A DNA stretch of 64,000 nt from Thermoanaerobaculia bacterium (lineage in GTDB: Bacteria > Acidobacteriota > Thermoanaerobaculia > Multivoradales > UBA5704): assembly GCA_036277075.1 (NCBI GenBank), contig DASUNQ010000027.1:701-64700 (forward strand). The letters run 5' to 3'. Under the pieces are notes generated by a model. It ran no database searches. It was not told where the DNA came from and saw only the letters and a list, made by a program, of their open reading frames with translations. Position numbers and translations under genes: made by a program. Within the stretch, counting starts at the first letter, position 1, and each line of letters starts with the position of its first letter. Below, piece after piece: positions 3,348 to 29,283 of the stretch.

Positions 3348-3348
3348 G

Positions 3349-9486: not shown

Positions 9487-9507
9487 GGGATAGCCCTCCT
9501 TGAATGG

Positions 9508-12822: not shown

Positions 12823-12857
12823 AAGCCCTCCACGGACTCTCGCCCGCGTGCTCTAAA

Positions 12858-13466
12858 ATGGTGCCGGTGAGTCGGCAAGTGAACGACGACTGGTTCGCGG
12901 ATCTCTACCAGCGTTTTTACAGCTCTATTTTCGCCTACTTCGTGCGCATCGGTTTTCCGCGCGAGGACGCGAGGGACCTCGCACAAGAGACATTCTTGCG
13001 TGTCTATCGCGGTATGGAGCGTTATGAAGGCCGCGGCGACTTCGCCTTTCTGAAAAAGACCGCGGTCCGCGTCGGCATCAATGCGATTCGCGACAAGAGG
13101 ACGGCGAAGCGGCAGGCCGTCGTCGTCCCGCTCGACGAGCTGCCGCACATCGCCGCCGGCGCCGAGAACCCGGCCGGCGAACCACAGCCGACGCCCGAGG
13201 CCGATGCCGCGCTGCACGAGGAGACGGTCGCGCGCCGAAGCTGGCTGAAACAGGCGATCGCCGCGCTGCCGCCCGCACAACGCGATTGCCTGCTGCTCCG
13301 GCTCGGCGGGCTCAAGTACCGTGAGGTCGCGCGCGCGATGGGCGTCCCGATCGATACAGTGAAGTCGCGTCTCCACGAGGCGCGCAGGACGCTGAGCGAG
13401 GGGTACCGCGCGGGTGCCGGAGGGCTCGAGTTGCCGCCGGAGCTCGAGGACGACGACCATGATTAG
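12858..13466 (+). CDS. ECF (sigma-70 family group IV) RNA polymerase sigma factor, 202 aa
   Basis: Region 2 motif (DLAQETFLRVYR) and region 4 motif (QRDCLLLRLGGLKYREVARAMGVPIDTVKSRLHEARRTL). It overlaps the next gene by 8 bp (ATGATTAG). Confidence 0.85.
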   Translation: MVPVSRQVNDDWFADLYQRFYSSIFAYFVRIGFPREDARDLAQETFLRVYRGMERYEGRGDFAFLKKTAVRVGINAIRDKRTAKRQAVVVPLDELPHIAAGAENPAGEPQPTPEADAALHEETVARRSWLKQAIAALPPAQRDCLLLRLGGLKYREVARAMGVPIDTVKSRLHEARRTLSEGYRAGAGGLELPPELEDDDHD

Positions 13467-14217: not shown

Positions 14218-14774
14218 TCGCGCACCTGCCGATCGTAGGCGTCGAGCAGAGGCCCCAACCGGCGCGCGTCGGACTGCCCGGGCGGGATCGTCCGCTCGAC
14301 GAACAGGCGGAAGAACTCGACCGCCTTCCGCTGGTGGCCGGCGGAAGAGCCCGGCGTCGCGGGCTCCGACCGATCCAGCACGGCGCTCGCGTAGGCCAGC
14401 GAGAAATCGCGCAGGTCGAATGCCGCCCCGGCCTGCTGTTGCAACCGCGCCTCGCGCACTACGAAGTCTCTGATCTCGGCCAGGTGCCAGAAGACGAGGC
14501 CCTCGTCGTTGGCCGCCGCGAGCGCCTGCAGACCCTCCACCCGCTGCTGCAGCGTCGAGCGGTCGTTTTCCAATTGGCGGGTTACGGCGCGAAACTGCTG
14601 CACCCGCTCGCGGTGCGCCTGCAGCTCGCTCTCCTTCTCGAACACCGGCTTCACGCTGTGGACGTACGCATAGAAACCGAAGGCGAGCGCCGCGATGGTG
14701 GCGGCCCTTTGGAAGATCTCGATCCAGGAATCCTCGCCGAGGAAGGTGCGCCGGAAGGGCTCTCGCGTCGCCAT
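14214..14774 (-). CDS. Hypothetical membrane-anchored coiled-coil protein, about 186 aa
   Basis: ORF 14214..14876 trimmed to the internal ATG (MATREPFRR) so that it does not overlap the divergent caspase gene. It has a TM helix (AATIAALAFGFYAYV) followed by a coiled-coil-like region. It is convergent with the anti-sigma gene. Confidence 0.45.
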   Translation of the reverse strand: MATREPFRRTFLGEDSWIEIFQRAATIAALAFGFYAYVHSVKPVFEKESELQAHRERVQQFRAVTRQLENDRSTLQQRVEGLQALAAANDEGLVFWHLAEIRDFVVREARLQQQAGAAFDLRDFSLAYASAVLDRSEPATPGSSAGHQRKAVEFFRLFVERTIPPGQSDARRLGPLLDAYDRQVRD

Positions 14775-14865
14775 TCTTGCGCTTATAAGAACACGGGAAC
14801 CGGAGCTCTGTTGGTCCTCCCCGGCGCTTTGACCCCGTCCGCCTCCGGGCGTGTCTTTCTTCCGC

Positions 14866-17199
14866 ATGAGGATCAACAGCCGGCGGAAGCTGTGCGTCTT
14901 GGTCGCCGCCTTGGGTCTCTTCGTGTGCGGTCGCGGCGACTGGACCCTGACCGCGGCCGTCGTGAGCCCGCGGCGCCACGCATTCCTGGTCGGAATCGAC
15001 GACTACGAGGGGCCTCCCGGGAACCGCCTCAAGGGCGCGGCGGACCGCGGCTGGCGCAATCTCGACGGCGCCGTCAACGACGTGCGCCTGCTGCGCGAGA
15101 TGCTCGTCGCCCGCTACGGCTTCGCGGCGCGCGAGGTCGCGACCCTGACCGACCGCGCCGCCACGCGGGCGGCGATCCTGCGCGGGATCGAAACGCACCT
15201 CGTGCGGCAGGCCGGCCCCGGCGACGTCGTGCTCTTCTACTTCTCGGGTCACGGCTCGCAGGTGCGCAACTCCCGCTCCGACGAGCCGGACGGCCGGGAC
15301 GAGACGCTGGTGCCGGCCGACTCCCTCGCCGGCGCGCCCGACATCCGGGACAAGGAGCTGCGGCGGCTGTTCAACCGCATCCTCGACCGGGGTGCCCGCC
15401 TGACGGTCGTCGTCGACGCTTGTCACAGCGGTTCGGTCGCGCGCGGCCTGCCCAGCGGCGCGCTCTCCCGGGGCATCGACCTGGACCCGCGGGACGTCGC
15501 GGACGGCTCTCCGCACGGCCCGCGGCCGGAGGAGCGCGGGGCGCTCGTCCTCGCGGCGGTCCAGGACTTCGACCGCGCCTGGGAGAGCTGGGACGAAGCC
15601 GGTGAGCCGCACGGCGCGTTCTCGCTCGCCCTGGTGCGGGCGATGCGGGACGCCCTCCCGGGGGAACCGGCGGAGGAGACCTTCCTGCGCGCGCGCGCCC
15701 GCCTCCAGGCCGCGCGCCGCTTCCAGGAGCCCGTCCTGACCGGCAATCCGGCGGCGCGGCTCGCTCCCTTGCTGGGTTCGCGCCCGGCGGCGCGGAAAGA
15801 CCGTGCCGTGGTCGCCGTCGAGCGCGTCGAGCACAGCGGGACGGTGGTCCTCCAGGGGGGCTGGGCGCACGGGCTGGCGGTCGGCAGCCAGTTGCGGGTC
15901 AGCGTACCGGGGCAGGGCGAAGGGGTGCGGCTCGTCGTCACCGCGATGAAGGGGCTCGGCCGCTGCGAAGCCCGCGTCGCGCCGTCGCCGTCGCGGCGCG
16001 CGGCGCCGGCGGCCCCCCTGGCCGGGGCGCTGGCGGAAGTCGTCGGCTGGGAGGTGCCGCCGATGCCGCCTCTCCGCGTCTGGATGCCGCGCGCCGAGGG
16101 GGGCGCCTTCGACGCGGCCGTCCGTCTGGCCGGCGAGCTCGCCGCCGCGGCGCCGCGCCGCCGCATCGGCTGGGTGAGCGACCCGACCGAGGTAACGCCG
16201 ACGCACCTCCTCCGCTGGCGCGCCGAAGGCTGGGAGCTTCTCGCGCCGCGAGAGCTGCCGGCAAGTCTCGGCCCGGCGGCCGACGCGGCCGCGGTGCTGG
16301 CGCGCATCGACGCTCCCCGCTCCGCTCTCTTCGTGCAGCTGCCGGCGCCGGCGGACCTGCCGCTCGAGGTCGGCCCGGGCACGGGCCAGGAGGGTGTGAC
16401 GCCGGCGGCGGAGCCCGAGCAGGCCGACTACGCCCTGGTCGGCCGGCTCGCCGGTCGCGCGGTGGAGTACGCCTGGGTGCGTCCCGAAGTCGGGGCCGCC
16501 GACCGGCGGCGGAGCGGGCTGCCGTTGCGCAGCGACTGGGTCGAGCTCGCGCCCCGGCGCTCGGCCGAGGCGGTCCTCGATCTCGCCCGGGCGGTGCTGC
16601 GGCTGCGCCGGGTCCAAGGGTGGTATCGCCTCGAGTCGCCGGTGACGGAGGCCTTCGCGTACCGCTTGGCGCTGGCCCGGCCCGACGACCTGCGCGAGGT
16701 GAGCGACGGCGTGCTGCGCGGCGGCGAGAGGCTCGGCCTCGCCTTGCGCTTGCGGGCGCCGCAGCCGGGCGCGGTGCGCCCCCGCTACGTCTACGCCTTC
16801 ATGATCGACAGCCACGGCCGGAGCGTCTTGCTCTTCCCCGCCACAGGACCGCTCGAGAACCGCTTCCCGACGCACCGACCGGGAGCAGCCTCCGAGCCGC
16901 CCGCCACGATCCCGCTGGGATCGCCGGACCTCTTCACGGTGAGCGAGCCGTTCGGCGTGGACACCTATTTCCTTTTGACTAGTGAAGAGCAGCTCCCGTA
17001 CCCGTGGGTGCTCGAATGGGAGGGGGCGCGAACGCGGGAGCCGCGCCCGCTGTCGCCGCTCGAGGAGCTGGTGTTCGCCACCAGCGGGGTCGCCCGCTCG
17101 GCCGCGGTGCAGGTGCCGTCGAGCTGGTCGCTTGAGCGCAGGGTCTTCGAATCGGTGCCCGCAGAGGCGGGCGGCAGGGGAGGGCGAAGCGGTGCGTAG
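14866..17199 (+). CDS. Caspase-family (peptidase C14) lipoprotein with large C-terminal extension, about 777 aa
   Basis: Signal/lipobox (LGLFVCG). The caspase p20 catalytic dyad is in canonical context: His in VVLFYFSGHGSQV and Cys in TVVVDACHSGS. It is preceded by HAFLVGIDDY, the typical start of the caspase core. Confidence 0.8.
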   Translation: MRINSRRKLCVLVAALGLFVCGRGDWTLTAAVVSPRRHAFLVGIDDYEGPPGNRLKGAADRGWRNLDGAVNDVRLLREMLVARYGFAAREVATLTDRAATRAAILRGIETHLVRQAGPGDVVLFYFSGHGSQVRNSRSDEPDGRDETLVPADSLAGAPDIRDKELRRLFNRILDRGARLTVVVDACHSGSVARGLPSGALSRGIDLDPRDVADGSPHGPRPEERGALVLAAVQDFDRAWESWDEAGEPHGAFSLALVRAMRDALPGEPAEETFLRARARLQAARRFQEPVLTGNPAARLAPLLGSRPAARKDRAVVAVERVEHSGTVVLQGGWAHGLAVGSQLRVSVPGQGEGVRLVVTAMKGLGRCEARVAPSPSRRAAPAAPLAGALAEVVGWEVPPMPPLRVWMPRAEGGAFDAAVRLAGELAAAAPRRRIGWVSDPTEVTPTHLLRWRAEGWELLAPRELPASLGPAADAAAVLARIDAPRSALFVQLPAPADLPLEVGPGTGQEGVTPAAEPEQADYALVGRLAGRAVEYAWVRPEVGAADRRRSGLPLRSDWVELAPRRSAEAVLDLARAVLRLRRVQGWYRLESPVTEAFAYRLALARPDDLREVSDGVLRGGERLGLALRLRAPQPGAVRPRYVYAFMIDSHGRSVLLFPATGPLENRFPTHRPGAASEPPATIPLGSPDLFTVSEPFGVDTYFLLTSEEQLPYPWVLEWEGARTREPRPLSPLEELVFATSGVARSAAVQVPSSWSLERRVFESVPAEAGGRGGRSGA

Positions 17200-20100
17200 A
17201 GGCGGGCGCGCGATCGGCGCGCTCCTTCTGGCCGGCGCGCTGCTGGCCGGCGGCCCACTGTACGCCGAGGAGACGCGTCCGCTCGAGCCCGACCGCGCCG
17301 AGACCCTGGTCGACGCGGCCGCCGCACACATCGCCGGCGGACGGATGGCCGAGGCGGAGGCCGCCCTCGGCGAGGCGCTGCCCCTCTTCCAGGCCCGGCA
17401 GGACCGGCGCGGCGAGGCGTTCTGCCGTCTCCTGCAGGGGCTGGCCGATACCGCCGCCGGGCGGGACGCCGCCGCCGTCGCCAGCTTCGAGCAGAGCCTG
17501 CCGGTGCTCGAGGAGAGCGGCGAGCTCATGACCGCGTGGCTCGTGTACGTGGCGCTCGCCGAGGTGGAGAAACGCAACGGACATACCGAGAAGGCGATCG
17601 CGCACTACGAGCGCGCTCTCGCCGTGGTCGGCAATATCGAGGACCCCTCAACCAAGCTGTCGGTTCAGGGATTCGCGCGGCTGGGCAAGGCGTTCGGCGT
17701 GCCGGGGATCGACCTGGGGCAGCTCGAGCTCGTCGTCACCATCGCGCGGTCGATCTGGGCGCGCTTCGCCGAAGCGGCCGCCCGCGACGGCTACGCCGGC
17801 GTCCTGATCGAAGGGTACGAGTTGGAGCGGGCGGAGGCCGAGCTGGCGCGATCGACGGAGCTGTCCCGTCTCTTCGGCGGGCTCCTGGACGGCTCCATCG
17901 CCGCCCGCCGCGGCGACCTGCGCAGGTACCAGTGGAGGCTCGACGAAGCGCGGCAGGAATACGAGACCGCTCTCGCCGCGGCGCAGCAGCCCTTGCCTCT
18001 GCCCTTCCCGCGTAGTGAACAGGAGGTCGTGAGCCTGCTCGGCCGGCTCGCCGAGATCGAGCTGTTGAGCGGCCGCCTCGAGCAGGCGCTGGCGTGGAAC
18101 GACAAGGCGCTCGCGCTGGTCCGCGGCAAGGACCGGAAGCGCGAGGCGTCCGTGCTCGACGACCGCGCCGAGCTCTTCCGCCGCAGCGGCAGACTGGGCG
18201 AGGCCGAGGCGCTGTTCAACGAGACCCTCGCGATCGCCACGGAGACGAACGACCTCCTGGGGCAGGTCACGGCCCTCTCCGATCTCGGCACCGTCGCCAT
18301 GCTTCGCGGGGCTTACAAGGAGGCGGCGGTGCACCTCGAGAAGGCTGCCTCGCTCGGCAAAAGCCTCGACGAGCCGCTCATTGAAGCGGGAGTCTTGATC
18401 ACCTTGTCCGAGGTCTACCTGCTCCTCGAGGCGCCGGGCAGCGCCCGCGCGACGATCGAGGGCGCGCAACACCAGGCGAAGCAGAGCGAGTTCCCCCTCG
18501 CCACCGCCCTGAGCGAGGCGGTCGCGGCGCTGGAGCGGTTCCTTTCGGGGAAAGGGTCGGCGGTCGAGCTGCTGGAGCTCTACGACTCGTTCTGGCGCTT
18601 GCCGGAGGCCGGCACGTTGATGATCGATCCCGCCTTGCGAGCGCTCTTCCTCGCGGTCGTGCGCTTGGAGACCACGGGCGACGTCGCCGACCCCGGATTG
18701 GTCGCCGCCCTCGCCGCCTCGAAGGGGCCGCAGCCTTTTCCCTACGCCTCGATCATGGCGCTGTTCCTGCGCGGCCGTCTGCACGCACTGGCCGGGGAGT
18801 GGCAGGAGGCGCGCGATCTCTGGGCGCGCGCGCTCGACGAGGCGCGACGGGTCGAGCAGAAAGATTACGCCGCCATGCTCTCGGCCGGGGTCGCCCTCAT
18901 CTACTGGAAGCAGGGACAACCGCAGCCCGCGATCGAACAGCTCTCCCGCGCGGTCGCGCTGTTGGAGGAGCAGAGCAAGGGGCTGCAGGTGGAGGAGCTG
19001 CTCAGCGCCTACCTCGGCAGCCAGCGCCGGTGGTTCTACGAGCTCCTGGTCGAGATGCTCGTGCAGCAGGGGCGCACGGCCGAGGCGTTCGACTACGCGG
19101 AGCGGGCCCGCGCCCGCGCCTTGCTGCAGCTCCTCGGGAATCGGCGTCTCAAGCCGGCGGGGGGGGCCGACGCGCAGCTCGTGGCGGAGGCCGAGGCGCT
19201 GCGCATGGCTATCGCAGACTGGGAGCGGCAGGAGGTCGTCGCCGAGGGGCCGCAGCGGTTGGCGCTCGAGAACGACCTGCGGAACGCTCGCGACCGCTAC
19301 GCGCACCTGCTGGTGCGCCTCAAGGTCTCGAACCCGGCATACGCTGCCATCACCAGCGTGGAGCCGCTGACCGCTGTCGAGGTGCAGCGCGCCCTGCCGC
19401 CGGACACGGCGCTGATCAGCTATTTCGTGACGCGCTCCACCACGCACGCGTGGGTGGTCGACCGGGAAGCTTTCCACTACGTCGGGCTGCCCATCGGTGC
19501 CGCCGAGCTGCGCCAGGCCGGCGATGACTGGGCGAAGGAGCTCGGCGGCCGGAGCCGCGGCGCGACGCCTCACGGGGGCGCCGCCTTGAGCCCGCAACGC
19601 GCGGAGCATCTCTACCGGGCCCTCGTCGCGCCGCTCGTCCCACACCTCCGGCATCGCCGCCTGCTGCTCATTCCGCACGACGCGCTCCACTACATCCCTT
19701 TCGCCGCGCTGCGCGAGCCCGCGAGCGGGCGCTACCTGATCCAGGACTACACGCTGGCCTACGCCCCGAGCACCAGCGTGCTGCCCTTCCTGCGCGGGGA
19801 GCAAGCGCCGATTGCCGGACGGGCGCTGGTGCTGGGCGCGCCTGAGGCGCTCGATCCGCGCTGGGGGCGGCTGCCGGCCGCGCGCGAGGAGGCCAAGGCC
19901 GTGGCTCGGCTCTTCGGCGCGGTGCCGCTGCTGGACGCTGAGGCGCGGGAGAGCCGTCTCTACGACTTGCGCGGCGAAGTCGACCTCCTCCACATCGCCG
20001 CCCACGGGTTCTACGAGCGGGCGAGCCCGCTGTTCAGCCGCCTGGTCTTAGCACCGGGGGACGGCCACGACGGCAACCTCGAGGTGCACGAGATCTTCGC

Positions 20101-20449
20101 CGGCCTCGACCTCGCCGGGGTCGACCTCGTCGTCCTCTCCGCCTGCCGGACGGGGCAGGGCGAGCGCAGCGGTGGCGACGAGATCACGGGGCTGACGCGG
20201 GCGTTGCTGTACGCCGGGACCCCGGCGGTGATCTCCACCCTCTGGGACATCGACGACGCGGCCTCGGCGCTGCTCATGCAGGAGTTCTACCGCCGCTTGC
20301 TCGAGGGCGTTCCTGCCGCCGAGGCCCTCCAGCAGGCGCAGCTCAGCCTGCTGCACCACCCCGGTTACGAGGCCCCCTTCTTCTGGGCGGCGTTCAGCCT
20401 GACCGGAGACCCCCGCGGACAGTGGCAGCGCGCCGGGTCGCCTCGCTGA
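17192..20449 (+). CDS. TPR-repeat protein with C-terminal CHAT (caspase-like) protease domain, about 1085 aa
   Basis: GTG start overlaps the caspase-gene stop (GTGCGTAG). Signal-like N-terminus (AIGALLLAGALLAGGPLYA). Many TPR-like helical repeats. CHAT catalytic His (LLHIAAHGF) and Cys (LVVLSACRTGQG). Confidence 0.8.
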   Translation: MRRGGRAIGALLLAGALLAGGPLYAEETRPLEPDRAETLVDAAAAHIAGGRMAEAEAALGEALPLFQARQDRRGEAFCRLLQGLADTAAGRDAAAVASFEQSLPVLEESGELMTAWLVYVALAEVEKRNGHTEKAIAHYERALAVVGNIEDPSTKLSVQGFARLGKAFGVPGIDLGQLELVVTIARSIWARFAEAAARDGYAGVLIEGYELERAEAELARSTELSRLFGGLLDGSIAARRGDLRRYQWRLDEARQEYETALAAAQQPLPLPFPRSEQEVVSLLGRLAEIELLSGRLEQALAWNDKALALVRGKDRKREASVLDDRAELFRRSGRLGEAEALFNETLAIATETNDLLGQVTALSDLGTVAMLRGAYKEAAVHLEKAASLGKSLDEPLIEAGVLITLSEVYLLLEAPGSARATIEGAQHQAKQSEFPLATALSEAVAALERFLSGKGSAVELLELYDSFWRLPEAGTLMIDPALRALFLAVVRLETTGDVADPGLVAALAASKGPQPFPYASIMALFLRGRLHALAGEWQEARDLWARALDEARRVEQKDYAAMLSAGVALIYWKQGQPQPAIEQLSRAVALLEEQSKGLQVEELLSAYLGSQRRWFYELLVEMLVQQGRTAEAFDYAERARARALLQLLGNRRLKPAGGADAQLVAEAEALRMAIADWERQEVVAEGPQRLALENDLRNARDRYAHLLVRLKVSNPAYAAITSVEPLTAVEVQRALPPDTALISYFVTRSTTHAWVVDREAFHYVGLPIGAAELRQAGDDWAKELGGRSRGATPHGGAALSPQRAEHLYRALVAPLVPHLRHRRLLLIPHDALHYIPFAALREPASGRYLIQDYTLAYAPSTSVLPFLRGEQAPIAGRALVLGAPEALDPRWGRLPAAREEAKAVARLFGAVPLLDAEARESRLYDLRGEVDLLHIAAHGFYERASPLFSRLVLAPGDGHDGNLEVHEIFAGLDLAGVDLVVLSACRTGQGERSGGDEITGLTRALLYAGTPAVISTLWDIDDAASALLMQEFYRRLLEGVPAAEALQQAQLSLLHHPGYEAPFFWAAFSLTGDPRGQWQRAGSPR

Positions 20450-20537
20450 GACGTCCCACAAACCGCCCCGGCCGGTGTCTCTCTTGAAGTAGCGACTGCT
20501 GGCGGCGACGCTGGCATGTTGCCAAGGAGACGACGCC

Positions 20538-23231
20538 ATGCGGCGAGCGTGTGCTTGGTGCGCGGCAACGGCGCTGTCGCTCTCAGCGGCGGTGGCACAG
20601 CCGACCGGCGGTCAGCCGCCCCAGCTACCGCTGCAACACATCGTCTTCGTCATCGACAACTCGAGCTCCATGGAGAATCAGGCGAACCCTTCAGACCCGC
20701 TCCGCCTGCGCGGCGTCGCGGCCAGCTTGATTCTCGATGCCGCCGAGCTGGCTTCCAATGTGGAGGCGGGGCTGGTGTTCTTCAGCGACGGGGCCGAAAG
20801 CGACGGCAGGCTCCACCCCCCGGACGTCATCCGGCAGCGGCTCCAGTCCGACGGACTGCCCGCGTCCCAGGGTGGCACCAACATGCACGCCGGGTTGGAG
20901 AGGGCCATCAGCATGTTCAGCGGCTCGGCGGCAAGCATCAAGAAGATCGTCTTGATCACCGACGGCGAGCCGGACGCCGGCCAGAGTCAATCCATCGTCG
21001 GCTCCCTGGTCCCGCACGCGCAGCAGGCCGGGATCCAGATCTTCGCCCTGGGTCTGAGCCGGGCGGACACGGCGTTCCTCGACCAGCTCACGCTGCCGAC
21101 CCACGGCCGGACGCTCCTGAGCCCGCGGCACCAGGAGCTGCTGCAGCGCGCCAAGGAGCTCATCGCCGAGCGCGACAACGTCTACACGCTCGTCCAGGAA
21201 GTGCTACAGACCCCGCGGACAGAGTACGAATTCGAGCTCCCCCCGGGGGCCGATCGGGCACGGCTGACGACGATCCTCGACCGGCCGCAGGAGTTCGGCC
21301 GGAGCGAGATCGAGTTCACCCTCGAAGGGCCGGACGCCGGCGACCCCGGGCGGCCCTACGTCGTCGACACCGCCGCGGGAGACCGGGTGGCGGCGTGGAC
21401 GACCTTCTTCCGCACGCCCGGGAAGTACACGCTGCGCGTGGCGACGAGCAAGCTGGGCGTCTCCGGCCATCTCGGCCTCAAGCTGATGGTCGAGGCCCTC
21501 TCGACACTCCGGATCGCCCTGCGGCTCAACCCGCCGGACGAGCAGTACGGGTTCGGCGACGAGGTCGAGGTCCAGGTGGAGGCCACGAGCGGCAGCGGCA
21601 CCGTCGACCCCGCGACGCTGCGGCTGAGCGCGACCGTGAGCACTCCCGCCGGCGGCGGGCCGAGCATCACCTTCATCGGTCTGCAGGGTCGTTTCCGGGT
21701 GCCCGACGTGGCGGGCCGGCACACGCTCGTCGTCAAGGCGGAGACATCCCAGCGGCTGGGACGCGCGCAGGCAGCCAAGGACTACACGGCCGTTCCGCCG
21801 GACGCCGCACAGCTCAAGTCGTCGCGGCCCACGCTGGCCTTCGTCCACCCTCTGGGTCCGGACCGGCCGCAGGTGGAAGAGGGTTTCAAGGTCTTCGCCG
21901 AGTTCCCGGAAGGCGTCAGGCGGCGGCCGGTGAAGGTCTCGGCGACCTGGATCTCGCCGGTCGGCGAGGCCGAGCTCATCGGTCCCGGCGAGGCGAGCCT
22001 GCGCAGGGCTCCCGCGCTCTACACCGTGCCTCCGGAAGGGCTCGAGCTGCGCCTGCGGGTCAAGATGGACCCGACGAAGCCGCTCAAGGGCAAGAGCGGC
22101 AAGCACCCCGGCGAGATCCGGCTCTTCTCGCAGGAGGCGGGCGAGCTGGTGATCCCCTTCCAGCTCGAGGAGCGGCGGCCGAAGTTCGAGCTGAAGGGCG
22201 CGCCCAAGGCGCTCACCCTCTGGTGGGACCCCTGGCAGCCGCGCCAGGTGAGCTTGGGGCGGGTGGTCTCGGACCTCAGCACGCCGAGCACCTTCACGGT
22301 CACGGTGCCGGAGGCCCTCCTCGCGCCGGGCCAGGGAGCGAAGATCGCCGATCTGGCGCTGCGGATCGGCGGCGAGGCCCGGGAGCCAGAGCCCGTCGAC
22401 GCCGGCAAGCTCCGTTATGGCCCGATCGATCTGCCGCCCGGCGAGGAGATCCCTCTCGACCTCCTCCTGACCCCGACCGACGATACGCAGTGGGAACGCC
22501 TGGCGGCGAGCCGGCAGCCGGTGGAGGTCCAGCTGCGGTCGGACCTGGGGATGGAGGCCGTGATCCAGCCTGCGTTTTGGACGGTCGGCGGCCTGCGGAG
22601 CGGCATGCCGCTGCTCGGGCCCTGGTCTCGCCACGGCCGGCACCTGGCGGTCTATCTGCTCTGCGGCGGCGGCCTGCTGCTGGTCCTCTACCTGTTCGTA
22701 CGGAGGGGTCTGCTGGTCCGCCGTTTCTGGCGGTTCCGCAGCGGGTCTCTGCGTTCCCTCGGAATGGGGGCGATCCAGATCGGCGAGGCCGGGACGGCGG
22801 GCGCCGCCGCCCTGTTGCTGCCGAACTCGGGATCGGAGCTGGACGACCGCTCCCTGGCGCGGGTGTGGCGGGAGGGCAACAGCCAACACCTCGACGACCT
22901 CTCGGAAGGGCGTCTCCTTCTCAAGGACCGGCAGCTCACCGCGCCGCGGCGCCTCGCCCCGGGCGACGTCTTGGGCATCGAAGATCCGCGGGATCCGGAA
23001 GGGAGGCTCTGGGAGCTCGACTACAACGGCTTCGATCCCCAGACCGGGGAGGGCGAGCTCGAGGTGTCGATCAGCCCGGCGCCTTTCACGGCCGGCCGGC
23101 TCGCGCGCAAGCTCGTCGTGGGACTGCTCCTCCTCGCGCTCTTGAAGCTCTTTCTGGGTTGGGGGTGGGTGACGGAGCTCGCCTACCGCTTGCCGCTGAT
23201 CGAGGCCGCCTACGTGCGGCTTCTTTCGTGA
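20538..23231 (+). CDS. Membrane-anchored von Willebrand factor A (vWA) domain protein with possible C-terminal FHA-like module, 897 aa
   Basis: Signal peptide. vWA MIDAS motifs: HIVFVIDNSSSM (DxSxS), GGTNMHAGLERAI (Thr), IVLITDGEPD (Asp). A large beta-rich middle region. Two hydrophobic helices near the C-terminus (LAVYLLCGGGLLLVLYLFV and LVVGLLLLALLKLFLGWGWV). The intervening segment is loosely FHA-like (inference). Confidence 0.8.
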   Translation: MRRACAWCAATALSLSAAVAQPTGGQPPQLPLQHIVFVIDNSSSMENQANPSDPLRLRGVAASLILDAAELASNVEAGLVFFSDGAESDGRLHPPDVIRQRLQSDGLPASQGGTNMHAGLERAISMFSGSAASIKKIVLITDGEPDAGQSQSIVGSLVPHAQQAGIQIFALGLSRADTAFLDQLTLPTHGRTLLSPRHQELLQRAKELIAERDNVYTLVQEVLQTPRTEYEFELPPGADRARLTTILDRPQEFGRSEIEFTLEGPDAGDPGRPYVVDTAAGDRVAAWTTFFRTPGKYTLRVATSKLGVSGHLGLKLMVEALSTLRIALRLNPPDEQYGFGDEVEVQVEATSGSGTVDPATLRLSATVSTPAGGGPSITFIGLQGRFRVPDVAGRHTLVVKAETSQRLGRAQAAKDYTAVPPDAAQLKSSRPTLAFVHPLGPDRPQVEEGFKVFAEFPEGVRRRPVKVSATWISPVGEAELIGPGEASLRRAPALYTVPPEGLELRLRVKMDPTKPLKGKSGKHPGEIRLFSQEAGELVIPFQLEERRPKFELKGAPKALTLWWDPWQPRQVSLGRVVSDLSTPSTFTVTVPEALLAPGQGAKIADLALRIGGEAREPEPVDAGKLRYGPIDLPPGEEIPLDLLLTPTDDTQWERLAASRQPVEVQLRSDLGMEAVIQPAFWTVGGLRSGMPLLGPWSRHGRHLAVYLLCGGGLLLVLYLFVRRGLLVRRFWRFRSGSLRSLGMGAIQIGEAGTAGAAALLLPNSGSELDDRSLARVWREGNSQHLDDLSEGRLLLKDRQLTAPRRLAPGDVLGIEDPRDPEGRLWELDYNGFDPQTGEGELEVSISPAPFTAGRLARKLVVGLLLLALLKLFLGWGWVTELAYRLPLIEAAYVRLLS

Positions 23232-23236
23232 CCCCC

Positions 23237-26200
23237 ATGATCACCCTGACCGAAAGGAGCTTCCCGCAGCCGACGCTCTCGATCTATCTCGGCGGCACCG
23301 GCATCCTCGTCGGGGATTCCTTGCTCACCATGCTGGAAACCCTCCCAGACGCGGAGCGGGCCTTCGTCGAGGCGTTTTTCATCGACTCCCAGGAGCCGGC
23401 GATCCGCGACCACGAGCGCGCCCGTCACTACTGTTACGGAGACCTGGGAGTTTTCTCGCAGCCGATCTACGAAGGGTTCACCGAGCGGCGGTTCCCCGAG
23501 AACCTGGGGGTCAATCCCGTCGTCAGCTCCTGCGACGGCTGCGGCGTGACCAGGATCTTCGGGGCGGCGAGTCTCGTGGCTTGCCGCGACGACTTCACCG
23601 ACCTGGTCGAGCGGGCGGTCGCACGGCTGGTCAAGCACGGCGCGAGCACGCAGCCGCTTCAGGTCTTCCTCACCGCCAGCGCCTGCGGCGGGACCGGCGC
23701 CGGGATGATCCTCGACGCGGCCGCCCTGGTCCGGCACGTCTGCCGCACGAGGATCGGGAGCAATTCACGGATCTTCCTCTTCCTGCTCGGCCCAACGGCC
23801 TTCTTCGAGGACCCGGCGATCAACCTGCGCGAGGACCAACGTCATCGGATGCAGGCCTCCACCTACGCCCTGCTCAAGGAGCTTCACCACTTCGCCCAAG
23901 GCAACGAGTTCGTCAGCGCGTACCGGCTGCGCGACGAGATCGTTCGTGTCAGCAACAGCGCGGACGACGACCGGCTCTTCGACTGGGTCTTTTTCATCGA
24001 CGGACGGGCTGAGCAAGGGGCGCCCAGGAGCCTCGCGGAGGTGACCTGGACGGTGGCCGAGGCACAGCTTCACCTCTGCGTCAGCGAGGTGGGCCGCAAG
24101 GTCGCGGAGTCCCTGCCCAACCAGCGCGAAGAACGGGTGCGGAGCTTCGGGCTGCACTTCGTGCACCCGGACAACAAGCATCGCCTCTCGCCGGCCGCTC
24201 GCGACCAACTGGCGAGATCGTCCCGAACGACCTTCCTCGCCAGCCTGGCGGTGCGCAGCGTGCGCTTCCCAGCGGAGGAGATCAAATCCTGGTTCCGCTG
24301 GCGTTGGGTCCACGAAGCGCTGGACAAGACGGTAGACCGTCGAGGGGTTGGCGGCGGCGTCGCGCTCGTGGACGAGTTCGACCGTTTGCTCGGCTACGAC
24401 GACGGCGACGTGCTGGAGGAGGGGCTGATGAAGGAGCTCGGCTTGCGGGCCGAGCAGTTGCTGCAGGTCGTGGCGGAGCGCGATCTCAGCCGCGGCATGG
24501 CCGAGGGCCCGAGCCCGGCGATGCCGCTCGAAGGGATGATCCAAGGCGCCGGGGAGTTGCTCGACGTCGCGGCGTCTCTGCTCACCGAGCTGCGAGAGGA
24601 GCCGGCAGCACCGGCGCCGGGAGCGGAGCGCACCGGGGGACCCCTCTCGGGCGCCGAGCTGCTCGCCGCCGCGCTGCCGCGCTGGAGCGCCGGGCTCGCC
24701 GCCGGTCTCGCGGCCGGGGGACGCAGCGCCGAGCGCCTCTGGTCGCTGGCCTGGGATCCGGTCGAAGGACGGGGCCTGCGCTGGCTGGACGCGTTCCTGA
24801 CGCACACCGTGGATCTCCTGACGCAGCTCGCGCAGCGGGGCGTCCGGCGGCCGCAGCTTGCCGACCTCGAAATGCGGCTGGACGAAGCGCGCCAGCTCCA
24901 CCAGTGGCTAGCGAGGAGCTACCAACGCGAGAACCGCACGCTGGGCTTCCGCTGGCGCGCCGTGCGTTCCAGGCTGGCGAAGCTGGCTCTCCTGGACGAC
25001 AAGCAGGGCCCCGCCAGCGACGCCCTGCAGCGGAAGGCGAAGAGGCTGGCCCGGCAGCTGGCGGACCTGCGCGGCGAGCTGCTCGTGCAGCGGCGGGCAC
25101 AGCTCCTTGCCGCGCTGGCGCCGCAGGCCTGGCTTGAGGCAGCTCGGCTGCTCAGGCGCTGGCGGGAGGAGGCGCTGCTGCCGACGCTCACCGTCGCCGA
25201 GAACGCTCTGGCGCTGGCTCACACCCAGCGCGAGCTGGCCAGCGAGGGCCTCGCCGTCCATCAGGGAGAGGGACGTCGCGGCCGGTGGTACGCCCTGTCC
25301 ACCGTCTCGGTCGCCGACGACGAGCTCCTGGCGCAGTTGAGCCGGCGCCTGGAAGACCGAGTGCGAGTGGAGGACCTCGTCCTCGCCCCTCTCGAGGGGC
25401 GGGGCCTCAGCCGCGAACGCCACCGGCTTTCGATCGACACCTTCCGCCGGACCGACGCTAGGGCCGTCGTCGACATCCTCCACGCCCACGTCGCGGCGGA
25501 GACGACAGGGCATCTCGCCATCGTCGACGGCGGCTGGAACCTCGAGGAAGCCCGCGACCGGCTCAGGAGAACGGCGGCGAAGGTGCTCGACGAGGGCGCG
25601 CAGCCGCTGGTGCGCTTCGCGCGCGCCGCGGTCGGGCTGCAGCTCCAGGGATACTTCCTCGCTCCCCGCGAGTTCGTGCTGCCGCGACCCTTCGGCCGCA
25701 CGGTAGGACAGATGACCCCTCTCGACTCGCGCGACCCGCTGCGGCTCGGGGTCGTCAGCTTCGCTTTCGGCATCCCTCCCAACGCGCTCTACGGCATGGA
25801 CGAGCTCTTCGCCCAATACACCAACCTGCTCGGAGACCAGGAGCGGAACCGGGGCGTCCACGACCGTTACCCGCTGCACGTCTTTCGCGGCGCGGCCGAG
25901 AGCTTCGACGAGCCCTTCTCGCCGCTCACGCTGGAGATGGACGACGTGTTCTTGCACTCGCTGCTGCAAGTGGCGCGGGAGCTGGGGATCGACGACGGCC
26001 GGCGGATCGTTCTGGACATCCGGCAGTTCGACAACACCAAGCACGAGCTGGAGCAGGATTGGAATCGGCTCATCGAGCTGGCGGAGAAAGTCGTCCAGCG
26101 CCTGGACTGCCGCCCTGAAGAGGTGGACCGCCTGTTCCGGAACGGCGAGTACTCGGCGATCGCGCACTTCTACAACAGTCGGAGACGCCGCGGCGGCGGG

Positions 26201-26245
26201 CACGGGTCTCCGGACGGTACTCCACAGCATGAGACGGGTACCTGA
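23237..26245 (+). CDS. Divergent tubulin/FtsZ-superfamily GTPase-like protein with about 750-aa C-terminal extension, about 1002 aa
   Basis: The N-terminus has a T1-loop-like LSIYLGGTGILVG and a T4-loop-like LTASACGGTGAGMILDAAALV (the tubulin/FtsZ GGGTGSG signature). It is followed by a long mostly alpha-helical, Arg/Leu/Glu-rich extension. The start is taken as the ATG 6 nt after the upstream stop; an in-frame GTG at 23228 (GTGA overlap) is an alternative. The 1909-aa ORF 20516..26245 is mostly the out-of-frame shadow of the vWA gene. Confidence 0.65.
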   Translation: MITLTERSFPQPTLSIYLGGTGILVGDSLLTMLETLPDAERAFVEAFFIDSQEPAIRDHERARHYCYGDLGVFSQPIYEGFTERRFPENLGVNPVVSSCDGCGVTRIFGAASLVACRDDFTDLVERAVARLVKHGASTQPLQVFLTASACGGTGAGMILDAAALVRHVCRTRIGSNSRIFLFLLGPTAFFEDPAINLREDQRHRMQASTYALLKELHHFAQGNEFVSAYRLRDEIVRVSNSADDDRLFDWVFFIDGRAEQGAPRSLAEVTWTVAEAQLHLCVSEVGRKVAESLPNQREERVRSFGLHFVHPDNKHRLSPAARDQLARSSRTTFLASLAVRSVRFPAEEIKSWFRWRWVHEALDKTVDRRGVGGGVALVDEFDRLLGYDDGDVLEEGLMKELGLRAEQLLQVVAERDLSRGMAEGPSPAMPLEGMIQGAGELLDVAASLLTELREEPAAPAPGAERTGGPLSGAELLAAALPRWSAGLAAGLAAGGRSAERLWSLAWDPVEGRGLRWLDAFLTHTVDLLTQLAQRGVRRPQLADLEMRLDEARQLHQWLARSYQRENRTLGFRWRAVRSRLAKLALLDDKQGPASDALQRKAKRLARQLADLRGELLVQRRAQLLAALAPQAWLEAARLLRRWREEALLPTLTVAENALALAHTQRELASEGLAVHQGEGRRGRWYALSTVSVADDELLAQLSRRLEDRVRVEDLVLAPLEGRGLSRERHRLSIDTFRRTDARAVVDILHAHVAAETTGHLAIVDGGWNLEEARDRLRRTAAKVLDEGAQPLVRFARAAVGLQLQGYFLAPREFVLPRPFGRTVGQMTPLDSRDPLRLGVVSFAFGIPPNALYGMDELFAQYTNLLGDQERNRGVHDRYPLHVFRGAAESFDEPFSPLTLEMDDVFLHSLLQVARELGIDDGRRIVLDIRQFDNTKHELEQDWNRLIELAEKVVQRLDCRPEEVDRLFRNGEYSAIAHFYNSRRRRGGGHGSPDGTPQHETGT

Positions 26246-28073
26246 AGCGCACCCGCGCAGGCGATGGACACGGAGCGTCAAGGCCGCCGCCTTGGTTTTC
26301 CTGCTCGGCTCGAAAGCAAGCGCCGTGACTCGGGACGGCCTGGACCTCGTGCTGCTGGTCGATCGATCGCAGAGCATGGCCAGGCAAGGCCTCGCGCAAT
26401 CCGACGATCGTTCTGACGTCCGCGACCTCCTGCTCTCTCTCGCTGTCGGGATGGTCGGCTGGAGCTCTGACGTCCATCAGGTGAGACATCGGATCGCCGT
26501 CGTGAGCTTCGGCTCCGTGGCGCGGACCGATCTCCCGTTGACCGAGGTCCGGGGAGAGGACGTTCCCGGCCTGCGCACGGCCATCCGGGCGATCCGCCCG
26601 CCGGCCAGCCTCGGGAGCACGGACTTTCTCTCCGCCCTCCGGGCGGCGGCGGACGTGCTCGGCCCTCCTTCGGCCGCCGCGCAGCGAAGGCGCGCAATCC
26701 TGCTCGTCACCGATGGTGTGCCGTACGGGCGCAAACGCAATCCCGGCTTGGACCTCGAGGAGCTTCGACGCTCTCTGCCTCCGATCTGTCCCTACCCGGA
26801 GACCGCGCTCCATGTCTTCCTGACGCCTTCTTCGGGAGAGGCACGGGAGCGTTACCGCCGCATCTGGCGCGAGATGGCTCGGGGGCGGGTCTACGAGCTC
26901 GCGGGCGACCGCACGAACATCCTCACGGCGCTGCACGAGGGCGTGTCACAGGTCCTGGGGACCCGCTTCGCGGCGAGTCGCTCAGCGCCGGAGGGAGGGG
27001 CGATCGAGACCGTCGTGCTGCCGCCCTATCTCGAGCTCGTCGTCTTCGACATCGTGCGCGGCTCGGGGCACGCGGAGGTGGAGATCTTCTCTCCCGACGC
27101 TCCCCACCGGCCGCTCCTCGCCGGCGCTCGAGGTGTCGAGGAGGTCCGTCTGGGGCGGCTCATGCGCACGGTGATCGTCCGCCGGCCCAGCATGGGCCGG
27201 TGGACGTTCCGCAAGCCGGATGCGGGGGCGCGAGTGAAGGTTCTCTCGCAGCAGTTCTTTCCGCGCGGCTTGCTGGTCGAGCCAGAGAGCGGCCGGCGGA
27301 TTCGGCAGCACGGGCAGGTCTCTTTGGTCTATCGCTTGACCGACCGGGACGGCTCTCCCTTGCGGGAGCTTCCAGGTCATCCGCTCCTCCTTGGACTCTC
27401 TCTGGCACGACCCGACGGGGAACGCTCGCCTCTGCTCATGCGGCGCCAGGCGCCGGGGATGTTCAGGTCGCGACGGGAGACCGCGTGCGATCTCTCCGGC
27501 CGCTATTGGGCCGAGGCCGAGGTCGTGACCAAGGACGTTGAAGGCCGGACGGTCGAGGTGTTCCAGGACCGCTGGTCGGGGTTCGTGGTCCACCGGGCGA
27601 CCCGGATCGATTGCCGGATGACGACGTCACGGCCGCGCGAGCCGGTGTGGCTCGGCGGCTTGTTGCTCGGGCGCACCGCGACGCGTCTCGAGTGCCTCGA
27701 CGGCGCCGCACGGCCGGTCGCTCTCGAAGCGATCGTGAACGGCCCTCCCGACCGGCTCTTCACCCCGGTTTTGTCCCGGAACGGCCGGCGGATCCCGGCG
27801 ACTCTCGACCTCGCGTCCTCCGGTCGAGGCGTGCTCGAGGGGTCGCTCCGGGGAGCTGCCGCGCCCGGCTCTTACCGGCTGCGGCTGGCCGTTGACGAGG
27901 CGCGGCTTGCCGGCGAGTACAGCGTCCGGATCGTGCCGCCGGCGACGGACTTCGTCAGCGATCTGAGCTGGCGCGACTATGCGCAGCTCACCCTCCTGGC
28001 CGTCGGGCTCTTGCTGCCGCTCGCCAAGGTCTCGCGGCTCCGCGCTCGACGAACGAAAGGCGGCCGTGTCTAG
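26229..28073 (+). CDS. Membrane-anchored vWA domain protein, 614 aa
   Basis: Signal peptide. vWA MIDAS motifs: LDLVLLVDRSQSM, GSTDFLSALRAAADVL, AILLVTDGVP. C-terminal TM helix (LTLLAVGLLLPLA). It overlaps the upstream gene by 17 bp. Confidence 0.75.
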   Translation: MRRVPEAHPRRRWTRSVKAAALVFLLGSKASAVTRDGLDLVLLVDRSQSMARQGLAQSDDRSDVRDLLLSLAVGMVGWSSDVHQVRHRIAVVSFGSVARTDLPLTEVRGEDVPGLRTAIRAIRPPASLGSTDFLSALRAAADVLGPPSAAAQRRRAILLVTDGVPYGRKRNPGLDLEELRRSLPPICPYPETALHVFLTPSSGEARERYRRIWREMARGRVYELAGDRTNILTALHEGVSQVLGTRFAASRSAPEGGAIETVVLPPYLELVVFDIVRGSGHAEVEIFSPDAPHRPLLAGARGVEEVRLGRLMRTVIVRRPSMGRWTFRKPDAGARVKVLSQQFFPRGLLVEPESGRRIRQHGQVSLVYRLTDRDGSPLRELPGHPLLLGLSLARPDGERSPLLMRRQAPGMFRSRRETACDLSGRYWAEAEVVTKDVEGRTVEVFQDRWSGFVVHRATRIDCRMTTSRPREPVWLGGLLLGRTATRLECLDGAARPVALEAIVNGPPDRLFTPVLSRNGRRIPATLDLASSGRGVLEGSLRGAAAPGSYRLRLAVDEARLAGEYSVRIVPPATDFVSDLSWRDYAQLTLLAVGLLLPLAKVSRLRARRTKGGRV

Positions 28074-29283
28074 GCGGTTCGGCCTCTGCGCGGGGATCGC
28101 TTGCGCGCTCGTGGCGTCGAATTGTCCCGCGACCGCCGGAGGTCTCGCGGCCGCTCCGGCGCCGGAGCTCTCGGCGGGGATCTTCATCGGCGTCGAGAAG
28201 TTCTCTTACGACTTCTCGCTGGCGGACGTCGACTTCGCCGCCAACGACGCGGTCGACCTCGCCTACTCGCTCACCGTCGAGCGCCGGCTCCTCGAGCCGA
28301 ACCGAGTGCTGCTGCTGCTGGCGGGAGACCCGCGTCCCGAATCGCAAGGGCGCCTCGACAAGCTGACGGCGGCCGGCGCCAGGCGACAGGAGGCGAAGCA
28401 GGCCGACATCTATTCGCTCGTCGAGGAGCAGGGCAAGCTGGTGAGCGAGGGCGGCGTGCTAGTGGTCTTCATCGCGACGCACGGTTTCTCCGAGGGCAGC
28501 GAGCATCTGCTGATGGCCGAGGATTCGATCCTGGACGTCCGCACCGGCATCACCGCGGAGAGGCTCCTGCAAGCCACGCAGCCGACCCTGGGCGGCCGGC
28601 GTCTCCTGCTGATCGACGCCTGCCGCGAGCAACTTGTCAAGCCGTCTCGCCGCGGCCCGCGAACCGGCGAGGAACCGGATTCCCGGTCGGCCATGCGCAG
28701 CGAGCTGTTCGCCACGACGCCGACGGGGTACGCCCTGTTCTCGGCCGCGAGCTCGGGCGGCTTCGCGTATCACGGCGACGGCAACGGGTACTTCACGAAG
28801 AGCCTCGTCGAAGGGTTGGACTGCCGAGGTCCGCACGCCAAGCGGCGCGTCAAGAGTTGGTCGGCCCTCACCAACCTGGTGACGGCCGAGGTCGCCGCCC
28901 AGACCCAGGGAAAGCAGCAGCCCGATCTCCGGGTCGGCGGCGGCTATCGGGACTTCGCGCTTCCCGCCTGCGGCGCGGCGGCGCCGCGGCGTCCGCAGCC
29001 CCCTTCGCTCAGCCCCGAGCTGCTGCGGCGGATCCAGCATGCGCGGAACCTCGCGGCCACCGGCAGCGCCGAAAACGTCGAGGCCAGCTTCCGCACCTAT
29101 CGACAGGTGTTCGAAGAGCTGCCGCCCGCGATTCTGGCCACTCTCAATCAACCCCTGGTCGCGAGGGCGCGACAACTGGAGCCGGACAGTCGAGCGGACG
29201 AAGGCGTCCGGATCTACCGGCAGCTCCTGGAGCCGCTGCTCGCGCCCGCCGACAGATTGCAACCACGGGAGCCTTTCCCATGA
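28066..29283 (+). CDS. Caspase-family (peptidase C14) lipoprotein, about 405 aa
   Basis: GTG start overlaps the upstream stop (GTGTCTAG). Lipobox (LVASNC). Caspase dyad: His in VLVVFIATHGFSEG and Cys in LLLIDACREQL. The ATG at 27979 is an alternative start but would overlap the upstream gene by 95 bp. Confidence 0.75.
   Translation: MSRRFGLCAGIACALVASNCPATAGGLAAAPAPELSAGIFIGVEKFSYDFSLADVDFAANDAVDLAYSLTVERRLLEPNRVLLLLAGDPRPESQGRLDKLTAAGARRQEAKQADIYSLVEEQGKLVSEGGVLVVFIATHGFSEGSEHLLMAEDSILDVRTGITAERLLQATQPTLGGRRLLLIDACREQLVKPSRRGPRTGEEPDSRSAMRSELFATTPTGYALFSAASSGGFAYHGDGNGYFTKSLVEGLDCRGPHAKRRVKSWSALTNLVTAEVAAQTQGKQQPDLRVGGGYRDFALPACGAAAPRRPQPPSLSPELLRRIQHARNLAATGSAENVEASFRTYRQVFEELPPAILATLNQPLVARARQLEPDSRADEGVRIYRQLLEPLLAPADRLQPREPFP

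Follow-up and report, generated by a model that had tools for sequence, protein, structure and literature searches.

In a 64,000-nucleotide stretch of DNA from an uncultured Thermoanaerobaculia bacterium (Acidobacteriota; contig DASUNQ010000027.1; hereafter, the window), the gene at positions 23237-26245 of the plus strand encodes a protein of 1002 amino acids that is almost certainly, judging from its sequence, a typical FtsZl1 family protein (Pfam PF13809, Tubulin_2). No known branch of the tubulin/FtsZ superfamily is more divergent than this family. The gene, which was characterized by its translation, the match to PF13809, its homologues, and an AlphaFold model, lies between two genes for membrane vWA proteins, designated vWA1 and vWA2. 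The explanation that best accommodates our results, and that we consider probable, is a GTP-regulated cytoplasmic assembly of FtsZl1 docked on a membrane vWA protein.

FtsZl1 family membership and putative GTP-binding loops

The GC content of the window was approximately 72%, so that long spurious open reading frames (ORFs) are common. The ORF at 23237-26245 gave a stop-free translation of 1002 residues, and its GC content at the three codon positions (0.74/0.47/0.88) showed the same pattern as that of other coding genes here. Full-length homologues (n = 36) had 25-94% identity with the protein, and at least 36% in 35 of the 36. The N-terminus MITLTE was common to all 36, which marks the ATG at 23237 as the true start. 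No stop interrupted the frame over a further 2.7 kb upstream, where the vWA1 gene lies, and the ORF list had an entry of 1909 amino acids (20516-26245). The upstream part of this ORF had a codon-position GC of 0.90/0.72/0.50, a non-coding pattern, because the vWA1 gene (20538-23231) occupies another frame; the 1909-amino-acid ORF is spurious. The motif GGTGILVG occupied residues 19-26 and SACGGTGAGMILDAA residues 148-162. An earlier interpretation based on the letters of the window (the sequence-only reading) had proposed a large ORF with GTPase loops, located between two vWA genes. The first point was confirmed by the translation, the codon-position GC, the starts of the homologues, and the positions of the motifs, and the second by Pfam vWA matches at 20538-23231 and 26229-28073.

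The only Pfam match of the protein was PF13809 Tubulin_2 ("Tubulin like"), which covered residues 18-361 at a score of 87.7 bits (E 1.2e-24; cut-off, 27 bits) and spanned positions 5-354 of the 356 in the profile. The same domain was also present in 37 of 37 homologues. No NCBIfam model matched the FtsZl1 protein, and neither an FtsZ_C nor a Tubulin_C domain was found by Pfam in the 1002 residues. The nearest database protein (P0001, 94% identity), from a Thermoanaerobaculia metagenome-assembled genome (MAG), is named "tubulin-like domain-containing protein". In an exhaustive search with the single sequence against 1.84 billion representatives, 320 proteins were found at E <= 0.001, counted as representatives at the 50% identity level, which spanned Acidobacteriota, Chloroflexota, Planctomycetota, Proteobacteria, and other phyla. 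Among the matches listed, most were 800-1200 amino acids long and aligned to residues ~10-360 of the query only; about a dozen representatives matched over the full length. Since most listed members have this length, the "giant" size is the norm of the family, and the size of ~1000 amino acids that the sequence-only reading had regarded as an oddity of a divergent protein is usual.

FtsZl1 was described by Makarova and Koonin (2010, Biol Direct 5:33; PMC2875224) in diverse bacteria and archaea, in operons with vWA proteins that bear a metal ion-dependent adhesion site (MIDAS) and are often secreted or membrane-bound, together with kinases, a divergent GTPase, and OmpA-like proteins. The "FtsZ-like" proteins of 2010 were equated with Pfam Tubulin_2 in PMC9871819, and our assignment to FtsZl1 rests on the Pfam profile combined with this equation. 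The architecture of the present protein agreed with the published family: it had the three-part layout of ~1000 amino acids, with an FtsZ-like domain at the N-terminus that carries T1 and T4 and family-specific inserts between them, a long helical middle region, and a further C-terminal domain, and it shared the lack of FtsZ_C and Tubulin_C. The genomic link to a MIDAS-keeping vWA protein bearing a signal peptide or transmembrane (TM) segments, another trait of the family, was found on both sides of the gene.

Structural comparison pointed to the same superfamily. An AlphaFold2 model of the 1002-amino-acid protein was built on 37 sequences, and secondary structure was assigned by DSSP; the full-length model had a mean predicted local distance difference test score (pLDDT) of 86.5 and a predicted template modeling score (pTM) of 0.78. 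In a Foldseek search against the PDB, all of the top 50 matches were tubulin, FtsZ, CetZ, TubZ, or BtubAB, each with a probability of 1.00, and no unrelated Rossmann-like fold was among them. This result and the 87.7-bit PF13809 match upheld the placement in the tubulin/FtsZ superfamily made by the sequence-only reading. The model aligned with FtsZ, CetZ, and tubulin over 260-320 residues, whereas the family had been alignable only up to helix H5 in 2010 (PMC2875224). Because the GTPase subdomain alone would not account for alignments of such length, the predicted core appears to include helix H7 and the C-terminal tubulin subdomain, that is, to be near-complete.

At the sequence level, a PDB search with the subfamily profile found no FtsZ or tubulin and returned weak coiled-coil noise only. 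The best match was CdvA (E 0.021); Snf7 and designed helical bundles followed, with E values of at least 0.08, and the CdvA and Snf7 matches were not read as ESCRT homology. When the narrow profile of the 37-sequence subfamily was compared with one FtsZ by hhalign, only the T4 motif was aligned (probability 1%). The profile of the 158-sequence family, compared with four FtsZ sequences, gave a probability of 95.7% and an E value of 8.6e-9 over 258 columns; this alignment serves as supporting, not primary, evidence.

In the sequence of FtsZl1, T1 was G19-G20-T21-G22 and T4 was C150-GGTGAG-156, with a Cys at the first place of the signature [SAG]GGTG[SA]G. Conservation of the loops was taken from a 158-sequence alignment of the N-terminal domain of the family, in which G151-G152-T153-G154-x-G156 was conserved at 94-100%. 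Further conserved positions were D50 (97%), G101 (97%), R106 (89%), S148 (92%), D160 (91%), P186 (93%), Y210 (91%), E215 (99%), F248 (85%), and P345 (89%). The hhalign comparison with the four FtsZ sequences proposed T1 at G19-G22, T2 (NTDxQ) at D50/Q52, T3 at G101-R106, T4 at G151-G156, T5 (PFxFEG) at P186-E191, and the Asn region of T6 at N240/D245. A predicted tubulin/FtsZ fold with conserved putative GTP-binding loops T1 to T6 was shown. For T7, hhalign paired N295 with FtsZ N207 and D312 with D212, at a confidence of only 0-3 out of 9. These residues lie in a subfamily-specific insert (residues 293-315), where most family members have gaps. Among the 37 members of the subfamily, P294, N295, R297, and E298 were invariant and position 312 was Asp or Glu in 36 of the 37. 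Compared with CetZ, FtsZ, TubZ, and tubulin, FtsZl1 of the window has in common the GGTGxG signature of T4 and equivalents of T1, T2, T3, T5, and T6, but differs in an insert of ~50 residues between S2 and T3, in the lack of a confidently placed T7 residue, and in ~590 extra C-terminal residues.

The tubulin/FtsZ-like domain comprised residues 1-419 (23237-24493, plus strand); in the model this part was alpha/beta, with 49% helix and 14% strand, and the tubulin-like domain ended at about residue 415. It was followed by an all-helical, stalk-like region of residues 420-675 (24494-25261, plus strand), as defined by DSSP on the model, with 76% helix and 0% strand, including a single 79-residue helix at 595-673. 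The R, L, E, and A content of this region was 57%. It had no Pfam match even at E <= 5, and a hidden Markov model of residues 420-675 retrieved the close subfamily, three more distant proteins, and nothing else; as judged by these searches, the helical region is specific to the subfamily at the sequence level. Residues 676-985 (25262-26191, plus strand) formed a conserved C-terminal domain of mixed alpha/beta structure (49% helix and 16% strand in the model) with many residues invariant among homologues, and residues 986-1002 a disordered Gly/Thr-rich tail in the model. The sequence-only reading had assumed a helical extension of 750 residues; the extension was found to be ~590 residues long, and its helical nature held for residues 420-675 and not for residues 676-985. 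The published C-terminal domain of FtsZl1 was likewise described as "mostly alpha-helical" (PMC2875224), in contrast to the mixed structure here.

The invariant set of the C-terminal domain included GIPPN (845-849), Y861, G866, D867, DRYPLHVFR (876-884), and E892. A profile of the domain found its core (query residues ~825-905) also in distant members of 810-1150 amino acids, at the corresponding C-terminal location, and therefore the domain is part of the conserved design of the family. It gave no Pfam match at E <= 5, and its fold matched no known one. Within the full-length model the block means of pLDDT for this domain were mostly 85-96. When the domain was folded alone with the same sequences, the pLDDT was 73 and the pTM 0.35, and the GIPPN/DRYPLHVFR region was disordered, which hints at packing of this conserved motif onto a different part of the protein in the predicted structure. 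Neither hydropathy nor inspection revealed a signal peptide, TM segment, or hydrophobic segment in FtsZl1, and the protein is thus presumably cytoplasmic.

The vWA partners and conservation of the locus

The vWA1 gene (20538-23231, plus strand) was identified by Pfam VWA and hydropathy and encodes 897 amino acids, in the order signal peptide, vWA domain, beta-rich region of ~500 residues, TM1 (703-721), loop of ~135 residues, and TM2 (860-878). The DxSxS motif of its MIDAS was intact (DNSSS), and its stop codon ended 5 nucleotides before the FtsZl1 ATG. The vWA2 gene (26229-28073, plus strand; Pfam VWA_2 and VWA, and translation) overlapped the FtsZl1 gene by 17 nucleotides and encodes 614 amino acids with a signal peptide, a vWA domain with the MIDAS DRSQS, a beta-rich region, and a C-terminal hydrophobic anchor followed by a basic tail. 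Pfam gave nothing usable for the beta-rich parts of vWA1 and vWA2 at E <= 5. Signal-like N-termini (basic, then hydrophobic) were found in vWA1, vWA2, and the two caspase-like and two CHAT proteins encoded nearby, and not in FtsZl1. The vWA domains of vWA1 and vWA2 were predicted to be periplasmic and the loop of ~135 residues in vWA1 to be cytoplasmic. By eye this loop had an FHA-like look, which was supported by no tool, and no claim is made of it.

A vWA1 homologue was located directly upstream of FtsZl1, and co-directional with it, in every full-length relative examined. Loci with the vWA1-FtsZl1 pair included those of the alphaproteobacterium Hoeflea (locus L011), a gammaproteobacterial MAG (L006/L012), and Chloroflexia (L014). 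The TM-loop-TM layout with shared motifs was kept in the proteobacterial vWA1 orthologues (L006, L011), which had 27% identity. vWA2 was downstream of FtsZl1 in seven related loci (L001, L003, L005, L007, L087, L088, and L089), and in L008 it was upstream of vWA1 instead. Homologues of the first caspase-like gene were found in L001, L003, L005, L007, and L010, with Peptidase_C14 genes in L087 and L088; homologues of the second were found in L007 and L008, and orthologues of one CHAT protease (CHAT-A) in L001, L003, L087, and L088. Among the nine related loci with 36-94% FtsZl1 identity, eight (L007, L008, L001, L003, L005, L010, L087, and L088) had Peptidase_C14 and/or CHAT genes within 10 kb, and the upstream flank of the exception (L089) was cut off. 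An extracytoplasmic function (ECF) sigma factor gene with an anti-sigma-like gene was present just upstream of the protease-vWA-FtsZl1 genes in the window and adjacent to them in L087 and L088. In L007 the anti-sigma-like gene was present, and the very edge of the locus contained the 3' end of the gene for the sigma factor. Clade members with a taxon name were Acidobacteriota, and the other loci were unlabelled metagenome contigs. The core of the system is the vWA1-FtsZl1 pair, to which this clade has added vWA2, the proteases, and the sigma pair as an elaboration of its own.

Two Planctomycetota-type loci had large neighboring genes without a recognizable domain. In a Caldilineaceae MAG (L027), the Tubulin_2 gene was directly followed downstream, at 12589-15873, by one for another, highly divergent Tubulin_2-like protein (1094 amino acids; 19.6 bits, below the cut-off), and this pair resembles the paired tubulin genes of Firmicutes in Kaur et al. 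2020 (PMC7159879). In L087, the Peptidase_C14 and TPR-CHAT parts were called as one product of 1793 amino acids (1956-7337); either the two proteases are truly fused there, or the gene caller merged them across an overlapping junction such as that of the window.

The region 13459-30678 of the window was compared with L007 (DATLOC010000027.1, a Thermoanaerobaculia MAG). The synonymous divergence (dS) was 0.12 for vWA1 and 0.14 for FtsZl1 (94% amino acid identity), and 0.16 for RecQ; for the caspase-like, TPR-CHAT, vWA2, and anti-sigma-like genes it was 0.42-0.56, with 68-80% amino acid identity. This mosaic divergence suggests that the flanking, apparently exported components have undergone recombination or allele replacement, or else that the MAG assembly is chimeric. 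The stretches 30634-32763 and 35377-36875 were absent from the otherwise syntenic L007. A minus-strand ORF of 486 amino acids at 35413-36873 had an unusually low first-position GC of 0.57 and no Pfam match, and the stretch 35377-36875 may be a recent insertion.

Proteases, the sigma factor pair, and surrounding genes

The cluster at 8.4-29.3 kb contained two caspase-like and two TPR-CHAT proteases, all apparently exported, the two membrane vWA proteins, one FtsZl1, and the ECF sigma/anti-sigma-like pair. The first caspase-like Peptidase_C14 gene (14866-17199, plus strand; Pfam C14, 81 bits) encodes ~777 amino acids counted from M6, with a signal-like N-terminus, the dyad motifs SGHG and DACHSG, and a DUF4384-like C-terminal region. 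It was followed by TPR-CHAT protease B (17192-20449, plus strand; Pfam CHAT, 248 bits, and TPR), which has 1085 amino acids from the GTG at 17192 and a Sec-type signal peptide (RRGGRAIGALLLAGALLAGGPLYA). The second caspase-like gene (28066-29283, plus strand; Pfam C14, 36 bits), located after vWA2, encodes 405 amino acids from the GTG at 28066, with the motifs ATHG and DACR and a signal-like N-terminus. The same 8-nucleotide overlap, GTGNNTAG, was found at the caspase/TPR-CHAT junction (17192-17199) and at the vWA2/second caspase junction (28066-28073); in both, the GTG start is 5 nucleotides before the TAG stop of the preceding gene, and the mechanical ORF list had placed both starts far upstream.

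The ECF-type sigma factor (12858-13466, plus strand; Pfam Sigma70_r2, r4_2, and ECF) has 202 amino acids. Its gene is overlapped by 8 nucleotides by that of a single-pass membrane protein of 252 amino acids (13459-14217, plus strand), whose TM segment spans residues 130-148 as numbered in the listed ORF. This protein had no Pfam match at E <= 5, and from its position and topology we infer that it is anti-sigma-like. Between the anti-sigma-like and caspase genes, a minus-strand ORF of 220 amino acids (14214-14876) had one hydrophobic segment, a coiled-coil-like character, and a coding-like GC content at the third codon position; it showed 66% identity in L007, was not seen in the other loci, and had no Pfam match. 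Divergent from the sigma factor gene was that of TPR-CHAT protease A (CHAT-A; 9508-12822, minus strand; Pfam CHAT, 203 bits), whose 1104 amino acids begin with a lipoprotein-type signal with the lipobox LAGC. A hypothetical protein of 356 amino acids without a Pfam match is encoded directly after CHAT-A (8437-9507, minus strand). The two genes form a conserved pair, and homologues of the 356-amino-acid protein, encoded beside the CHAT-A orthologue in L001, L003, L087, and L088, had 34-43% identity.

Upstream of the cluster were two large Sortilin/BNR-repeat proteins, within 261-7499, a similar protein being encoded at 1-1802 of L087, and a PIN-domain gene (7768-8436) lay between these genes and the cluster. 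After the second caspase-like gene, a dienelactone-hydrolase-type alpha/beta-hydrolase was encoded at 29710-30678; this gene was present in L007 and not in L001 or L003. The surroundings were of a housekeeping type (ABC transporter, RecQ, ThiI). No Walker A motif was found in any coding frame of the 8.4-31 kb region, nor a GTPase Pfam match or a partner kinase, and there were no division or cell-wall cluster genes and no OmpA, ESCRT, dynamin, MoxR, or DUF58 gene near FtsZl1. The locus thus differs from the published FtsZl1 operons (PMC2875224) in that their Ser/Thr kinases, divergent P-loop GTPase, and OmpA-like proteins are absent, and in that caspase-like, TPR-CHAT, and ECF sigma/anti-sigma-like genes are present in this clade; the main text of 2010 names neither proteases nor Acidobacteria. 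It also differs from the loci of CetZ, FtsZ, TubZ, and tubulin in having no division, plasmid-partition, or phage context. The membrane-associated, non-division role suggested by the sequence-only reading is consistent with the lack of FtsZ_C, the lack of nearby division genes, and the conserved membrane vWA protein.

Proposed mechanism and alternative explanations

In the mechanism that we propose, FtsZl1 would bind GTP and self-assemble at the inner face of the cytoplasmic membrane, where it would dock on the predicted cytoplasmic loop of vWA1. Its nucleotide state would then set the clustering or conformation of the predicted periplasmic vWA domains of vWA1 and vWA2. In this clade, the caspase-like and TPR-CHAT proteases, which appear to be exported, would probably be retained or set free by these domains, and the ECF sigma/anti-sigma-like pair would probably drive expression upon an envelope signal. 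The reverse direction is also possible, in which ligand capture by the vWA domains would trigger the assembly of FtsZl1 in the cytoplasm. The output could be envelope or membrane remodeling, or a stress, conflict, or cell-death response. Among these elements, a GTP-dependent, membrane-proximal partnership of FtsZl1 and vWA1 is likely, and control of the co-encoded proteases by FtsZl1 is put forward tentatively, as the more doubtful part. We counted in favor of the mechanism the 5-nucleotide spacing of vWA1 and FtsZl1, the same low dS of both against L007, the overlapping or near-abutting starts and stops, the intact MIDAS motifs, and the retention of both catalytic-dyad motifs in both caspase-like proteins.

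Pairs of a MoxR AAA+ protein and a vWA protein, as in Bat/aerotolerance-type and CoxD-CoxE-type operons, combine an NTPase with a MIDAS-bearing, often membrane-anchored vWA protein and TPR proteins. The present cluster shares this logic, but with an NTPase of tubulin fold in place of an AAA+ ATPase. Such systems are also covered by Kaur et al. 2020 (PMC7159879), according to whom an alpha/beta-hydrolase gene is invariably found with the caspase-like domains of vWA-MoxR systems.

Several points weighed against the docked FtsZl1-vWA1 assembly and its control of proteases. The T7 catalytic acidic residue could at best be placed tentatively, not with confidence, in the sequence, and FtsZ-like head-to-tail assembly with a polymer-activated GTPase is for that reason hypothetical. 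Given its loss of model confidence when folded alone, the C-terminal domain may lie packed against the remainder of the protein, where it could cover a polymerization face. GTP binding, hydrolysis, and polymerization by FtsZl1 are assumptions, and a search of the literature, in a library that does not cover all journals, found no experiments with an FtsZl1 protein. No recognizable domain was found in the vWA1 loop by Pfam at E <= 5, and signal peptides and topology were called by eye and hydropathy. Protease genes were absent from the proteobacterial and Chloroflexia loci examined, and they are therefore accessory, not core.

A membrane-remodeling cytoskeleton, as published for the FtsZl1 family by Makarova and Koonin 2010 (PMC2875224), is the strongest alternative, although in its own terms somewhat unlikely. 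According to this explanation, cytomotive FtsZl1 filaments and vWA proteins bend or pinch the membrane, for example to form vesicles, and the proteases are incidental. The long helical stalk of the model and the conserved membrane-spanning vWA partner fit such a role, as does the published inference itself. However, FtsZl1 had no visible membrane-binding element of its own, T7 was not identifiable, and the cluster lacked an ESCRT, dynamin, or OmpA partner. Moreover, the tight, repeated linkage to caspase-like, CHAT, and ECF sigma genes in the eight of nine related loci speaks for the proteases as part of the system. Membrane remodeling overlaps with the docked assembly proposed above rather than opposing it.

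Decidedly less likely is an anti-invader or programmed-death conflict system of the kind described by Kaur, Burroughs, Iyer and Aravind 2020 (eLife 9:e52696, PMC7159879), in which the tubulin homologue and the vWA proteins would set the threshold for release of caspase-like or CHAT effectors, and these would kill infected cells or wall them off. Those GTPase-centric systems, GAP1-N2/DO-GTPase systems reported in Firmicutes and Actinobacteria, contain modules of a membrane vWA protein, with its vWA domain outside the cell, beside a tubulin homologue with a C-terminal coiled-coil or helical part. The same arrangement is found here, the location of the vWA domain being predicted from hydropathy and signal-like N-termini. 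Caspase-like effectors recur in both, in the published systems often paired with alpha/beta-hydrolases, and the present cluster has two caspase-like and two CHAT genes and the dienelactone-hydrolase-type gene after the second caspase-like gene. The much faster divergence of the flanking components than of the vWA1-FtsZl1 pair, and the matches of the protease genes to the PADLOC "caspase" and "TPR" models, are also in line with conflict. On the other hand, the systems of Kaur et al. are defined by TRAFAC-type P-loop GTPases (GAP1/DO) whose genes accompany that of the tubulin, with FNIII or HSP70, none of which was present here, and the word CHAT is not in their paper. PADLOC-DB v2 contained no model for FtsZl1, vWA1, or vWA2, and its matches to the protease genes were generic, apart from a weak BovA match. 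The alpha/beta-hydrolase was not kept in L001 or L003, the surroundings were of the housekeeping type and not a defense island, and the apparent export of the proteases is a poor fit to self-killing by cytoplasmic proteolysis.

A previously unrecognized FtsZ/tubulin lineage, as the sequence-only reading had suggested, or a divergent cell-division FtsZ is extremely improbable: the very low similarity to canonical FtsZ, seen in the narrow-profile alignment (T4 only, 1%) and the PDB profile search, speaks for it, but the new lineage is refuted by the clear PF13809 membership, the 320 representatives, the publication of the family in 2010, and the tubulin-like name of the nearest protein at NCBI, and against a canonical division FtsZ stand the lack of FtsZ_C, the Gly/Thr-rich tail at the C-terminus after the 590-residue extension, where canonical FtsZ has a peptide that binds FtsA or ZipA, and neighbors (vWA, caspase-like, CHAT, sigma, and ABC-transporter genes) that include no division or cell-wall genes. 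As a new tubulin lineage the protein has little weight, the family having been in the literature since 2010 and also in Pfam. FtsZl1 is a widespread branch of the tubulin superfamily, whose function was called unknown and whose filament formation was considered doubtful by Wickstead and Gull (2011); in the literature searched, which left some journals uncovered, we found no later functional or structural study of it. The predicted near-complete tubulin/FtsZ core bears on whether FtsZl1 forms filaments, as doubted in 2010-2011, and suggests that it may be able to do so. Two points appear to go beyond the papers cited here: the predicted core with a C-terminal subdomain, and the linkage of vWA-FtsZl1-vWA to apparently exported proteases and an ECF sigma pair in a clade with Acidobacteriota as its named members. 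The linkage to these proteases and to an ECF sigma factor suggests a function directed at the envelope and tied to proteolysis, instead of a purely cytoskeletal role. Cultured Hoeflea sp. AS60 (L011) carries the minimal vWA-FtsZl1 pair, which would make the core module experimentally accessible. At its most far-reaching, the 8.4-29.3 kb cluster might be a trans-envelope machine not described before, with a tubulin-fold GTPase on the inside that gates a caspase/CHAT proteolytic cascade outside the cytoplasmic membrane; we think this rather improbable. If it held, the cluster would be a bacterial envelope analogue of nucleoside triphosphate-thresholded protease activation, serving envelope remodeling, kin or invader conflict, or programmed death.

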